Below, one piece after another: positions 1-6,000 of a stretch of 48,264 nucleotides of DNA. This DNA is from a virus. Its lineage: Duplodnaviria > Heunggongvirae > Uroviricota > Caudoviricetes. Positions within the stretch are counted from its first letter, which is position 1. The number at the start of each line of letters is the position of its first letter. The stretch lies in the IMG/VR virus record IMGVR_UViG_2718217789_000011. One strand, written 5' to 3'. A program made the position numbers.

Positions 1-3000
1 ATGAGCGGAACCTCAGGTTCCTCGTCTGATGCCGCTCTTGCAACACGTTACGCTGCCGAGTATTTTTGTAAAACATGGACTGCTCCAGGCCTGAACCAGG
101 CAGAAGGATACAAAGCCATCTCAGATCTGTCGCATCACTATTTTCGTGCAGAAGGCTCTAGCCCTCCCCAATCTTTTTTGTGACACCCTGTTTCACTGAA
201 CATGAAGACACTCACCTTGTCCCTGATATTCATTAGCATCATCCTGATTATTTAACTTCTCTATTTAGGGAAGCCCGTCTGATACAAAGCTTCTATTCCT
301 CGTTAAATATTCTCCATTCTGGCGCCAAGCCCTATCTATAGCTGATTGAAAACAACTCTAAAAACGTAATAATATCAAATAGTTTATTCCTACAGCCGAT
401 CATTTTGAGTAAAATATTGACGAGAATTTCACAAAAGGTAGATTTCATGTAAACGGATAAATAAGACTATCCAATAAAGCTCTTATAAGGTTATCTATAT
501 GATAAATAGCATTAATTCTTTTTTTCCGGCCTTCCTCGCAGTATATCAAGTGCTATACGCAGCAGTACCTTCACTGTCTCGCAGCACAAAAGCACACCTA
601 ACACGGTAAAAACCAGCTCACCTTTTTCTCCCAGCAACAGTCCTGCCAGTGCAACAACTATTTTTAAGGTAAAAAATTCTTATACAGAATCAGGACTTCA
701 ACGTCCCACATCTTATACTCAGTCAAGTATAGAAAAAAACGCTTTACATCGGCCTCTACCTGATGTAGCTCAGCGTCTGGTGCAGCATCTTGCAGAGCAT
801 GGCATTCAACCAGCCCGGAGTATGGCTGAACATATTCCTCCGGCACCTAACTGGCCTGCGCCACCACCGCCAGTACAAAATGAACAATCAAGACCTCTGC
901 CTGATGTGGCTCAGCGTCTGATGCAGCATCTTGCAGAGCATGGCATTCAACCAGCCCGGAATATGGCTGAACATATTCCTCCGGCACCTAACTGGCCTGC
1001 GCCAACGCCGCCAGTACAAAATGAACAATCAAGACCTTTGCCTGATGTGGCTCAGCGTCTGATGCAGCATCTTGCAGAGCATGGCATTCAACCAGCCCGG
1101 AATATGGCTGAACATATTCCTCCGGCACCTAACTGGCCTGCGCCAACGCCGCCAGTACAAAATGAACAATCAAGACCTTTGCCTGATGTGGCTCAGCGTC
1201 TGATGCAGCATCTTGCAGAGCATGGCATTCAACCAGCCCGGAATATGGCTGAACATATTCCTCCGGCACCTAACTGGCCTGCGCCAACGCCGCCAGTACA
1301 AAATGAACAATCAAGACCTTTGCCTGATGTGGCTCAGCGTCTGATGCAGCATCTTGCAGAGCATGGCATTAATACATCTAAGCGCTCGTGATTATAATAT
1401 AATTACCTATATTAGCTCTGACCTGACAGTTACCGGTTATTTATACAGGTATCTGTCAGATTACATCTAACCAACAAAAAACCGGAGCCGGACTCCGGTT
1501 TTGTGAAGCTGTCGGCTATTTCATTCCGCCAATATTTTCCCACCTCCCGTCAGCACGCAGAATTTGCAGCGGTCTTACCACACACTGTATCTGCTTTTTA
1601 TCTGCATCCAGTATCACCACCTGCGTGATTACCCCGTCCTGCTCCGGAATAATGCCATTCTCATCTGACTCCAGGATGTCTGCCGGCCCCAGTCGCAGTT
1701 GTACTGTAAGCGACTGCCCGTGTTCACAGTCATCATGCTTTCCGCAACCGCACAGACGCTGCATAATTTTTTTTAATATGTTCATGTCATTCTCCTGTTC
1801 TGCCTGTATCACTGCCCACTTCATCCAGCCCCTTAACATCCTGCCACGGCCCGTCACCAAACCTGACCTGCAAATGCTGAAAAAAAACCTGAACCCGTGT
1901 GGCATCTTTGGGGGCAAGAAAGGTCAGTCCGGTGATGAGCGCACCATCTGTACCCGGGAACCAGCCATGGCTGTTTGTCTCAATAATGCTCGCCGGCCCC
2001 AGACGAAAACGGATTTGTGTCTCCCCCGGGTCGCCCTTCGGTCCCTGAGGTCCGGTTGCCCCCACCGGGCCAGCCGCACCTGTTTCTCCTTTCGGTCCCT
2101 GTGGGCCTGCCGGGCCTGCTGCCCCGGTGTCTCCCTTTGGACCCTGTGGACCTGCATTTCCCGTCAGACCGGTCTCTCCCCGCTCTCCCCTGTCACCTTT
2201 CGGCCCCTGCGGGCCTGCCGGACCAGCATCACCTGCCGGTCCCCGTTCGCCGGTTGCCCCTGCCGGGCCGGTGTCGCCACGCTCTCCTTTATCTCCCTTC
2301 GGCCCCTGAGGACCCGCGGGACCCGGTTCCCCCTTTGGCCCGGGAGGTCCCACCACGGTGGGGATTCGGTTTACGGCTTCTTCCGCCGCTATCCTGCTTT
2401 GTTCCGCTGACTGTGCGCTTTCTGCTGACTCCCGGGCTTTTTCTGTTGCGGTCGTTGCATCCCTGGCTGCATTACCGGCTGCACTTTCTGCCGTCTTTCT
2501 TGACAATTCAGCTTCTGCTGCACTTTGTGATGACTCACTGGCTTTTTGAGCGGCCGCAGAAGCCGAGGACGAGGACGCCTCCTCTGACTGCTTTGCAGCG
2601 GCTGCACTTTCTGCCGCCTGCCGGGCTGACTCCGATGCATCCCCTGCTGAAGTGTCAGCATTTGCCGCGCTCTCTTCTGCCTGACTGGCTGATATGCCGG
2701 CATTCCTCGCGGACGTCTCCGCCTCTCCGGCATTCTTCTTCGCCTCCTCAGCGTGACGCGCCGCTTCTTCCACCATCAGTTCAAAACGACGCAGTGCCTC
2801 CGGCCGGACGTCATCCTCCGACATGGCACCGAGAAAATCATTCAGCGTCCCCGGTTGAGAATCTTCATACACGGTGATGGTCCCGGCATGTGACGGCGGG
2901 AACCCTTCCACCAACAGAATAACGCTGTACTGACCGTACTCAACGTCCATGCTGTAACGACCGGCTTCATCCGGATTTTCAGAGGCCACCGTGTTCACCA

Positions 3001-6000
3001 CCACCGTGGCGCTGTTACGTCTGGCTTTCAGTTGAATGGTGCAGTTCTCTACCGGTTTTCCTGTGCCGTCTTTCAGTACACCTGAAATCTTTACTGCCAT
3101 ATTCACCCCACAAAAAAGCCCGCCTGAACCGGCGGGCTGTCATAACACTGTGTTACCTGGCTAATCAGAATTTATAGCCGACACCCACGATGAAGCCGTC
3201 AGTGCGCCAGTCGCCACTGCCGGAGCCTTCATAAGCAATATCAATGGCCACGGATTCGATCGGGTTAAACTGCACGCCAGCTCCCCACGCCAGAGACGTG
3301 TTGCTGTGGCGACCGTCATCACTTCCGGTCAGCACATCATGCGTTTTCCCCTTGTTGTCAGTTACGCGGAGATAATCCCCGGAGAAAGTCGACACACGGC
3401 TGTAAGCCACACCCGCCATCGCATACGCGCTGAACCATTCATTCACGCGCACAGACGGCCCCGCCATTACGCTGAACCAGCGGTTACGAACGGAATCTTC
3501 ATGCCAGCGGGTATCGCTGTAACGGGTCAGCTGGCGATTCTTGTCTCCTGCATAGCTGAACGACGTCACCATCCCCAGTGTGTCCGTAAACTCATAACGG
3601 TATTTCACGTTAATCCCGTTCAGTTCATCGCTGCCAGGAACGTTCGTCGAGACATGAAGATACCCCGCGCTCAGCGTTGACTGATGTTCAGACGCCCATG
3701 CAGGCGCACCGGATACGGCCAGACAAATGGCTGCGGACAAAATGGCGGCATAAAGTTTACGCATAATTACCTCTCGCTTTTCTGCAATAAAAAAGGCGCC
3801 ATTTCTGGCGCCCGTATATGGGTTATAAAATTCAGCTGATACTGATGCCTGCGGTGGCTTTCTTCATCACCACAACCAGCAAATCGCTGATACTTGCTGT
3901 GGGATACCAGTTATTCACCAGCCATGCTGACACCGAAAACTCCAGCGTCATGTGACCGTGACCGGCAGGCATATCAATAACGCCACTGTAAATCAGCGTA
4001 TTATCCAGCGCGGTACGGTTATAAATTTCAGCACCGTTTTTCCGCACTATCAGACGGCATGAGGAGTAAATATCAGTATGCTCTCTCTCATGTTTAGCGC
4101 CGCTGAATGCCACCGCCGGAATAACAATCTGCCGGTCAAACGGCTGATCGTCATAAACCCTGACGGTAATGGTCCCTGATGGCCACCGCTCCGGTGCACG
4201 GGAATCCCGGGGGAAAGCTTTGCCCACTGTTTTAACGAGATCGCCTTCAATCTGGTTCGCGGACAGTTTTCCCAGAACCCGACAGTTCTCGTTAATCGTG
4301 ACGTTGTTGAGCGTCCCGGAATTCGCATTCACGTTACCGCTGATATCAGCATTTCTTGCGGTCAGCCTGCCCTCCGGCGTCAGGGAAAACGTCGGGGGAT
4401 TGGCGGATGACGTGATACTCACCGCAAACAGTCGTTTCAGGAACACATCGTTCATGAACAACTGATTCCCCTGCGCCACAAATAACGGCGTGGTGTTGCC
4501 GTCCTCCGGGTTAATCATCGCAATACGGTCAGCCAGCAGCAGTATGTTGCTCAGGGGCTGGCCATCAGTATCCTCAATCCCCGCTCCAATACCGGCAACA
4601 TAGGGTATGCCATTTTTTGTTTTCTGTACCTTCAGCATGTAAAGTGCAGCAAGGTCATCATTTGTGTCCTTCTGCACGCGCTGTATCTGCTGTATGATGG
4701 CGCTCTGGTCCTCCAGCGTTTTACTGACCGTCTGTGTGATTTCATTGCGGGTTTCGGTGATGGAGGTCTTCATCTCCGCCATCTCATCCGCAAGCTGGCT
4801 GTTGTCTATCAGCTCCCACAGCCCCTGAGCCAGATGCAGTTTTCCTATTTTTTCCCGAAACAGCCCCAGATACCCTTCTGCATCATTGCTGGCCCGGCCA
4901 CTGGCTTCCACAAAAGCAGATTTCCCCACCAGGTTGACGCTGCGCACGTAAAACCAGAAATCCTTCCCGGGCTTAATGTGCGGGCCGGATACACTCCACT
5001 GACTGCCGGTCCCCAGATAACGGGCAGAGGTTTCCACCTGAGATGTATCTGCGATTTTTGTCTCCGAAAACCAGAACTCAAACTGTACCGTCGGGTCATA
5101 CACCGCAAGACGCGGGACCGCTGTTATCTGAAAATAGCCCGGTGTCAGCTCAATCGTGGCGGGTACCGCAGGTGCATTAATCCTGAACGTGGTGGTGGCC
5201 GGTTCCCCCTGCTGGCCATAACTGTTAATCGCCCTGACCGTCAGGGTGTATTCCCCCGGCGGCAGACCACTGGAACGATGCTCTGTATCCGCAGTGATGG
5301 CGGTGGTCACCAGACGGCTGCCTTCTCCGCTTCCGCTGGTCAGGCGCAGACTGAAGCGCACGCCCTTCACCACCCGCGGCGTGTCCCATTTCACCTGCGC
5401 CAGATACTGGCCGTCAGCTGCGCTCACCTCCACCGTCAGGTGCTGCACTGCCGGAGGGATGACGCTGTTCAGGGTGCCTGACTGCGGCTCAAAGCGGGCA
5501 CCGTTATCCACGATGGCTTCTTTTTCCGGTACGTGCTGCACCGCCGTGATGGCAAAGGTGCCGTCCGTGTTTTCCCGGACGGAGACACAGCGGAACAGGC
5601 GACGGCGCAGTGACGGCAGGGATAGTCCCCATACACCGTATGTCTCCACACCATCAGGCAGGGTGCTGACCTGTATCCGGTCCGGCGCGGGGTGTGCGGT
5701 GATGTCCACACTCACCGGCTTACCGCTGCCGTTAATCAGGTTCACCGTGGCGGCACCGGTCTCCGGCAGTGTCACCTCACGGTCCAGCGTCAGGGTGCGG
5801 CTGGCGGCATCGATGGACAGGACACGTCCGCCGGTCATGGTCCCGGCATAGTCGTTATCACAGATTTCAATAATGTCACCGGGTGTGTGACGCAGCCCCT
5901 GTGACCCGAGCGTGAAATCCACCGTCTGCGTTTCCAGCAGTCCGGTCTTTATCACCCACAGCCCGGCACGGTGGGCCTGACCGCGACTGGTGCAGCCGAA

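Follow-up and report, generated by a model that had tools for sequence, protein, structure and literature searches.

The locus described here raises the question of what a small gene does when it begins one nucleotide after the stop codon of a phage tail fibre gene and encodes a second version of the domain in which that fibre ends. It was found in the IMG/VR virus record IMGVR_UViG_2718217789_000011 (Caudoviricetes), whose whole analysed stretch of 48,264 nt is called the window below. Very probably, the locus is a fibre module in a lambdoid prophage of Escherichia coli O157:H7 and consists of two genes, one for a side tail fibre of the EPclA type and one for a small protein of 89 amino acids (aa) that carries the C-terminal domain of the fibre, PfC. 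Much more tentatively, the small protein may be a dispensable trimeric accessory that is docked on the distal end of the fibre, and not an obligatory chaperone. The coordinates of all features are listed in Table 1.

The resemblance of a segment of the small protein to the fibre C-terminus had been noticed in a sequence-only reading of the window, and it holds on pairwise alignment. BLASTP aligns residues 365–427 of the fibre with residues 28–88 of the small protein, with 22 of 63 positions identical (35%; E 2e-11 as a single comparison). Both products match PF06820 (Phage_fiber_C) over the full profile (positions 1–64 of 64), the fibre with 126.4 bits and the small protein with 122.7 bits, where the gathering cut-off is 25 bits. 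The alignment and the shared family therefore indicate that the similarity is real paralogy and not chance. The small protein also matches PHROG 576 ("tail fiber protein", an 89-position profile) at 89 of 89 positions (E 6.4e-59).

The minus-strand gene order is J (3832–7305), lom (3165–3764), the fibre gene and the small open reading frame (ORF). The longest fibre ORF (1787–3106) begins with GTG at 3106, and the annotated start is the ATG at 3100 (MAVKISG...), in the coding sequence that RefSeq names "prophage tail fiber N-terminal domain-containing protein" (WP_000268862.1). The span of 1516–3106 that had been proposed for the two genes contains both ORFs correctly; only its fibre start needs correction, as ATG 3100 is the most likely one. 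The proposed gap of 1 nt between the fibre stop and the next ATG can be read directly as TGA-C-ATG. On the minus strand, AGGAG (1796–1792) is followed by the fibre stop TGA (1789–1787), one base C (1786), and the ATG of the small ORF (1785–1783). This AGGAG is 6 nt upstream of the ATG and lies inside the last fibre codons. Terminator-like hairpins are present before the fibre gene and after the small ORF, and the two genes therefore form a bracketed unit that ends the late operon. Long overlapping ORFs in other frames (261, 286, 114 aa, and others) are seen on both strands at 1625–2877, over the collagen and Ala-rich regions of the fibre gene. None of them is annotated, and they look like by-products of GC-rich repetitive coding sequence.

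The fibre has PfN, a coiled coil, one collagen region, and PfC, which is the composition of EPclA; the coiled coil is assigned by analogy. The order PfN, PCoil, Col, PfC, the length of 437 aa and the prophage family are shared with EPclA of the ECs2717 type, and 437-aa EPclA genes of O157 prophages are listed in Table 2 of Ghosh et al. 2012 (PMC3368898). Fibre residues 3–95 match the "Tail fiber protein" of Ur-lambda in the PDB (9e7m/9mgh; E 4e-52). In Ur-lambda, PfN is the collar domain bound to gpV/gpM, and attaches the four side fibres to the tail (PMC12617516). PDB collagen matches span residues about 249–363, and an 11-residue tail at 1790–1822 follows PfC. EPclA is a trimeric rod about 55–62 nm long (Ghosh et al. 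2012, PMC3368898). Its PfC alone is trimeric by size-exclusion chromatography with multi-angle laser light scattering (SEC/MALLS) and is able to re-nucleate the collagen helix. Both recombinant EPclA and its isolated PfC trimerise without the small protein, and a downstream PfC-only gene is not mentioned in that paper (PMC3368898). By analogy with lambda Stf, the fibre in the window is probably accessory.

The small gene is linked to fibres that end in PfC. The ORF preceding it ends in PfC in 78 of the 78 loci with enough upstream sequence; its homologues thus sit beside PfC-ended fibre genes, where unlinked homologues would have spoken against the relationship first suspected. In a set of 50,697 phage records, the small ORF occurs in 296 and the fibre PfC likewise in 296, and the breakdowns by organism are almost alike; here the counts and the breakdowns were compared, not the record lists themselves. 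The pair is found in the lambda-like siphoviruses 434, lambda h434, Evi, and VT1-Sakai, and in short-tailed Shiga toxin (Stx) podoviruses (VT2-Sakai/Sp5) with a 645-aa EPclB fibre. The exact protein sequence of the small ORF is present on 960 contigs, and the named sources of the family are E. coli, E. albertii, Citrobacter rodentium, and Salmonella. A hidden Markov model search of 1.84 billion representatives gave 80 matches, mostly fragments of the two paralogues, and the family is narrow. Apart from E. albertii, a scan of one genome per species found only a contig of 725 bp deposited as Xanthomonas pisi (DSM 18956, NZ_JPLE01000138.1). The small ORF on this contig is 92% identical to the E. 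coli one; given so short a contig from an unrelated genus, it is likely contamination by E. coli or phage DNA.

In Salmonella enterica (including subsp. salamae), the gene upstream of the small ORF encodes a 212-aa protein with no PfN and no collagen, which ends in PfC (PF06820, E 4e-16). The small PfC-only ORF of Salmonella is 79 aa long, overlaps the fibre-like gene by 14 nt, and has an AGGAGG site upstream. A terminator-like hairpin follows this small ORF too. The non-collagen pair of Salmonella therefore indicates that the PfC end and the small PfC protein are what is conserved together, irrespective of the body of the fibre. The middle part of the 212-aa protein is weakly CBM_5_12-like, and genes for type III secretion effectors (NleG, SopA-like) are present near the pair. 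The N-terminal half of the Salmonella fibre PfC resembles the small-ORF type (EADEYGNIPQQDG versus ESDENGIIPEQDG), which hints at a past exchange between the paralogues. PfC-like modules are also seen in a 565-aa protein (locus L089, 3505–5202, metagenome contig SRR17035117_85161), which has four tandem repeats of ~78 aa followed by collagen Gly-X-Y. The repeats resemble the C-terminal half of PfC (...VVVLDADxxxxxGILxVRRADGTWxEIPALKG), and a single fibre can therefore carry several such modules in a row.

Comparison of the E. coli and Salmonella pairs sheds light on the age of the duplication. PfC identity is 65% between the small proteins and 40% between the fibres, and 30–35% in all cross comparisons. 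This order indicates that the duplication is old and that the small copy evolves more slowly. The duplication is older than the split of E. coli and Salmonella phages, and both copies have stayed distinct since then. Within the E. coli type, 84 related loci were collected from IMG/VR contigs, reference phages, and the window. The search for them relied on resemblance to the small protein and on the junction pattern, so that intact copies are favoured in this sample; the small ORF is intact and exactly 89 aa long in all 84. The junction GGAGAATGACATG is identical in all of them, partly by construction, since it was the search pattern. The pairwise ratio of nonsynonymous to synonymous polymorphism (pN/pS) is 0.17 for the whole small gene, 0.27 for its residues 1–27 and 0.10 for its PfC, and 0.28 for the fibre PfC. 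The intactness in 84 of 84 loci, the low pN/pS, and the own ribosome-binding site and start codon argue together against a decaying remnant or a cassette that matters only as DNA.

In contrast to EPclA, the small protein has PfC only, preceded by a 27-residue N-terminal extension. Its AlphaFold2 (AF2) model has an overall predicted local distance difference test (pLDDT) score of 77.3, and of 85–93 over residues ~31–80, with six beta strands in PfC. This model was built from a diverse alignment that included the Salmonella pair and the four PfC-like repeats, and an alignment of 8 near-identical sequences gave a pLDDT of only 46.8. The best BFVD matches of the model are tail fibre proteins of unrelated phages (probability ~1.0, query TM-score ~0.5). 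These scores are modest for a 60-residue domain and are read only as a sign of a small beta module such as is present in fibre shafts and tips. Among solved structures, the tip of the Mu fibre comes nearest to the fold of PfC; it was crystallised together with its chaperone. By sequence, neither the small protein nor the PfC profile found a match in the PDB, even at E ≤ 10.

The N-terminal extension consists of a predicted amphipathic helix and a linker. The hydrophobic moment of the helix (residues 3–12) is 2.24, compared with 1.05 ± 0.52 in shuffled sequences, and residues 13–22 are modelled with pLDDT below 50. Positions 19–25 are the most variable part of the small protein among the 84 loci. 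In a five-sequence alignment, only L11, G13, C14, and K16 of the 27 residues are invariant, and position 14 is Y in one of the 84 loci. The cluster CGCGKHDDCEH, which the sequence-only reading had recorded, is present at residues 12–22. Among C12, C14, H17, C20, and H22, the alignment shows C14 alone to be invariant; C20 is replaced by R in 48 of the 84 loci, and H22 by N or D in 19 of them. The small protein of C. rodentium keeps only C12 and C14, and that of Salmonella, where ten residues are deleted, keeps only C14. Because the residues of the cluster vary among loci and species, a conserved metal-binding Cys/His site is rejected as a feature of the family, and the cluster is a trait of this variant. 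L11-x-G13-C14 is lipobox-like and invariant in the alignment. A lipoprotein signal is nevertheless rejected, as K5, K6, and R10 (K5, K6, K8, and H9 in Salmonella) precede it and leave no room for a hydrophobic core. The comparison was made by eye with a PROSITE PS51257-type rule (an uncharged hydrophobic core before L-x-[GAS]-C).

The pair most similar to this one in earlier work is ORF67/ORF68 of Sp5 (VT2-Sakai). The small ORF is 92% identical, the fibre ends in PfC, and the gap between stop and ATG is also 1 nt. Sp5 differs in being a short-tailed podovirus, whose 645-aa EPclB fibre has two collagen regions and a Pf2 repeat and is essential; the prophage in the window is a defective one of the lambda-like siphovirus kind, in which the pair accompanies J and lom and the side fibre is an EPclA of 437 aa. 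When Sp5 genes were deleted in frame in a K-12 background, the fibre ORF67 (ECs1228) proved essential, and ORF68, an 89-aa PfC-only protein, was listed with the late genes that are not (Mondal et al. 2016, PMC5155283). A signal for a frameshift joining ORF67 to ORF68 was looked for in that work and not found, and its authors suggested that ORF68 serves within the genome as a reservoir from which the fibre could vary (PMC5155283). No experiment that assigns a function to the small protein was found, and dispensability on K-12 is the sole genetic result found. RefSeq labels the small ORF "phage tail fiber C-terminal domain-containing protein" (WP_001023352.1), the curated genome of phage 434 names it "tail fiber assembly chaperone", GenBank KU977419 (AU5Stx1) has "alternate tail fiber tip", and other records have "hypothetical" or "tail fiber protein". 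The RefSeq and PHROG annotation, Mondal et al. 2016, and the KU977419 label mean that both the observation and the idea of an alternative tip are already in the literature; as a sequence observation, the pair is already annotated and published. Added here are the intactness and pN/pS of the small gene, its strict linkage to PfC ends, the old duplication, and the finding that the Cys/His cluster is not conserved.

The small gene is conserved and strictly linked to PfC ends, yet dispensable where the fibre is essential, and PfC and EPclA trimerise unaided; these facts constrain the possible mechanisms. From its 35% identity to the fibre PfC, we infer that the small protein trimerises, and it would form its own homotrimer via PfC, as the fibre PfC does. 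Its N-terminal helix and linker might then dock it onto the distal end of the fibre, a mode of docking that is a guess. Once docked, it could serve as an additional knob, held non-covalently, and adjust adsorption to natural hosts or the range of these hosts. Fibre subunits usually have the N-terminus proximal and the C-terminus distal, and the layout of a helix, a disordered linker, and a C-terminal knob fits this polarity. With the same caution, the small protein might represent a class of fibre partners of its own, unrelated to Tfa and gp38: a knob that can come off the distal end, or a trans-acting "foldon", that would influence adsorption or host range in Shiga-toxin phages and other lambdoid phages. 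In gp38, the adhesin of T2/T6, and in gp36/gp37 of T4, a protein with a gene of its own binds the distal end of a trimeric fibre without a covalent link and prolongs or caps it. These are a working analogy only, as the small protein has no sequence or fold relationship to them, and gp38-type adhesins are essential for host recognition.

Several facts weigh against a distal knob. No proteomic or imaging evidence of the small protein in the virion or on the fibre was found in the papers searched. The fibre PfC is the more variable copy, which would be unexpected if it were capped. N-terminal variants of the small protein and variants of the fibre PfC are freely shuffled among haplotypes, although the close relationship of the loci makes this test weak either way. 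The shuffling means that there is no sign of lock-and-key co-adaptation, and together with the variable fibre PfC it counts against a tight, specific cap. The small ORF is also at the classic position of an assembly protein, that of lambda tfa, and the phage 434 label says the same. Finally, the dispensability of ORF68 holds for K-12 laboratory conditions only, and the mutant was reported collectively among the non-essential genes (PMC5155283).

The first alternative to be weighed is a non-essential assembly helper, an analogue of lambda Tfa or Mu gp50 that transiently binds nascent fibre C-termini. It would speed or register PfC trimerisation and collagen nucleation, and then leave or stay loosely bound. 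This is possible, if on balance doubtful, and nearly as likely as the distal partner. Tfa-type proteins (lambda Tfa, Mu gp50 (U), P2 G; Caudo_TAP) are encoded by small genes directly 3' of the fibre gene, as is the small ORF, and the order J, lom, stf, tfa of lambda corresponds to J, lom, fibre gene, small ORF here. Co-expression with the fibre gene, another trait of this type, is seen in the TGA-C-ATG junction with a Shine-Dalgarno sequence in the last fibre codons, and translational coupling would put the small protein beside the emerging fibre C-terminus. Each Tfa-type protein is specific for one type of fibre C-terminus, and the linkage here is specific to PfC-ended fibres regardless of their body. 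Some Tfa-type proteins reportedly remain at the tip of the fibre and attach to host surfaces. PfC nucleates collagen refolding, so that a PfC-shaped template is plausible; the name chosen by the curators of phage 434 and the Mu fibre tip, as the nearest solved fold crystallised with a chaperone, point in the same direction. Against a helper, no Tfa-type family was found for the small ORF in Pfam (E ≤ 1), PHROGs (E ≤ 1), or NCBIfam (E ≤ 0.1), where only PfC and fibre families matched; unlike Tfa, it lacks a sequence match to that type and is homologous to the terminal domain of the fibre itself. The conserved part of Tfa is N-terminal and the variable part C-terminal, which is the reverse of the small ORF, whose C-terminal part is conserved. 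Across genera, small PfC is better conserved than its supposed target domain (65% versus 40%), and it does not co-vary with the variants of the fibre tip. A Tfa-type protein is required for functional fibres, and in this respect the literature on Sp5 points the other way: the small ORF is dispensable where the fibre is essential, and Sp5 without ORF68 is still classed as infectious, in K-12 only. Recombinant EPclA and isolated PfC trimerise unaided as well. An obligatory Tfa-like chaperone is therefore unlikely, because EPclA and PfC trimerise alone, ORF68 is dispensable, and the small protein has no match to the Tfa family. The earlier suggestion of a chaperone derived from the fibre stands as far as derivation is concerned, as the small protein is a PfC paralogue always encoded after a PfC-ended fibre gene, and is weakened for an obligatory chaperone.

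The distal partner also has to be weighed against further proposals. A PfC trimer acting free of the fibre, for example as a decoy or mask that is released at lysis and takes up the fibre receptor on debris or nearby cells, or as a cytoplasmic agent against aggregation of the knobs, is improbable. In its favour, the small protein has the same fold as the distal knob, is made in step with the fibre late in infection, is dispensable for plaque formation, and would need lysis for its release, as there is no signal peptide; strong conservation is what would be expected if it bound a conserved host structure. Receptor binding by PfC is, however, purely supposed, the conserved N-terminal helix would be left without a role, and with 35% identity and differences at the positions that vary in the fibre the trimer is unlikely to compete for the same site. 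Less probable still is the recombination reservoir of Mondal et al. 2016, in which spare PfC DNA is swapped onto the fibre as an alternative tip. Besides the published proposal and the GenBank label, it can draw on the many copies in O157 genomes (the 9-kb region matches at as many as 26 places in one genome) and on two chimeras. In one E. coli chimera (P0059; cluster of 4), the collagen region is joined to the small-ORF PfC at a shared GPA motif; the other (P0113; cluster of 1) has residues 1–40 of the small ORF and the C-terminal part of the fibre PfC. These are rare, with 4 and 1 cluster members compared with hundreds to thousands for the canonical forms, and may have arisen by illegitimate recombination between copies of the prophage or as artefacts of assembly. 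The two PfC-coding segments have 51% DNA identity with a longest exact run of 11 nt, which is too low for RecA-dependent homologous exchange as inferred from its general requirements, and a cassette for homologous recombination is thus judged unlikely. The paralogues have moreover stayed distinct since before the split of E. coli and Salmonella phages, and the gene has features that would be superfluous in a mere DNA store, namely a start codon and ribosome-binding site, a conserved helix, and protein-level purifying selection. The least likely proposal, hardly to be expected at all, is a programmed +1 frameshift at GAA-UGA-C that would fuse some fibre chains to the small ORF and give two tandem PfC knobs. 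UGA followed by C with AGGAG just upstream is superficially like the prfB (RF2) site, a +1 shift would read ...GE-D-MNILKK... in frame, and the junction is identical in every recovered locus, with the reservation that it was the search pattern. In prfB, however, 3 nt separate the Shine-Dalgarno-like element from the P-site codon; here AGGAG abuts that codon, its last G being the first base of GAA, and GAA is unable to re-pair in the +1 frame (AAU). AGGAG at the normal 6 nt from the ATG is fully explained as a ribosome-binding site. The 14-nt overlap of the Salmonella junction makes the mechanism inapplicable there, and among the database matches no protein of the E. coli type has a second PfC stretch. 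No signal was found by Mondal et al. either (PMC5155283), and a +1 frameshift is judged unlikely on the lack of re-pairing, the overlap of AGGAG with the P-site codon, and the different Salmonella junction. Stop-codon readthrough is rejected because the fibre frame stops 17 codons past the TGA. This stop, the negative search for a frameshift signal by Mondal et al., the 51% DNA identity, and the rarity of the chimeras give little support to the alternative tip, as a fusion or a cassette, that the sequence-only reading had also offered.

The prophage as a whole is defective, and the fibre and small-ORF pair is intact nevertheless. The tccP2 pseudogene encodes four 47-aa proline-rich repeats of the EspF type at 780–1391, and the many short ORFs on both strands there are by-products of the 141-bp tandem repeats. 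The tRNA and esterase genes lie downstream of the gene for the antiterminator Q, a layout also known from the surroundings of stx loci in Stx phages; no toxin gene is annotated here. Their coordinates were taken from a near-identical record and are accurate to ±1 nt after 26863.

Table 1. Features of the two-gene fibre locus, of the surrounding prophage and of the Salmonella pair
Feature	Position	Strand	Basis or remark
Side tail fibre gene, EPclA type, 437 aa	1787..3100	-	ORF; RefSeq coding sequence WP_000268862.1; Pfam
PfN (phage_tail_N) domain of fibre	2702..3100	-	PF08400, E 8.7e-69, residues 3-135
Ala/Glu-rich PCoil region, between PfN and collagen	about 2351-2701	-	assigned by analogy with EPclA
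Collagen (Gly-X-Y) triple-helix region	2018..2350	-	PF01391, E 2.7e-18, residues ~253-363
Fibre PfC, C-terminal trimerisation knob, residues 365-428	1823..2014	-	PF06820, E 5.6e-37, profile 1-64 of 64
Junction 5'-AGGAGAATGACATG-3'	1783..1796	-	read directly off the sequence
Small ORF, 89 aa, stand-alone PfC protein, stop TAG 1516-1518	1516..1785	-	ORF; RefSeq WP_001023352.1; PHROG 576
N-terminal amphipathic helix of small protein (predicted), residues 3-12	1750..1779	-	AF2 model; hydrophobic moment
Variable linker of small protein, residues 13-27, with Cys/His cluster	1705-1749	-	low AF2 confidence
PfC domain of small protein, residues 28-89	1519..1704	-	PF06820, E 7.7e-36; AF2; pN/pS
Intrinsic-terminator-like hairpin and T-run just past small ORF	1478..1502	-	terminator scan: 11-pair stem, then TTGTTGGTTA
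Terminator-like hairpin between lom and fibre gene	3117..3138	-	8-pair stem, 7 GC pairs, then TTTTTGTGGG
Internal fragment of secretion protein EspV, pseudogene	1-174	+	annotation
tccP2 (Tir-cytoskeleton coupling protein), frameshifted pseudogene in RefSeq	499-1391	+	Pfam EspF, E 2e-134
sodC (Cu/Zn superoxide dismutase family) cargo gene, between J and tail assembly gene	7439-7966	+, opposite strand	RefSeq
Major capsid gene, truncated	14683-14946		
Terminase large subunit gene, frameshifted	18662-20591		
ISEc8 (IS66 family) insertion cutting terminase small subunit gene	20855-23167		
Defective stretch overall	about 14683-23518		
SASA-family carbohydrate esterase, next to tRNA genes	27555-29405	-	annotation of near-identical record
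Three tRNA genes (Arg, Arg, Ile)	about 29895-30144	-	annotation of near-identical record
Salmonella pair, 212-aa and 79-aa ORFs	L084 110-974, contig AAKHPG010000016.1		

Collagen-like fibres are present on the tails of Shiga-toxin phages and of many lambdoid prophages of enterohaemorrhagic E. coli O157, and they probably help to decide which bacteria Stx phages reach. If the small protein is a detachable distal knob or a modulator of host range, it would be a new type of fibre accessory protein. It would then also provide a simple handle for studying or re-targeting the adsorption of Stx phages.

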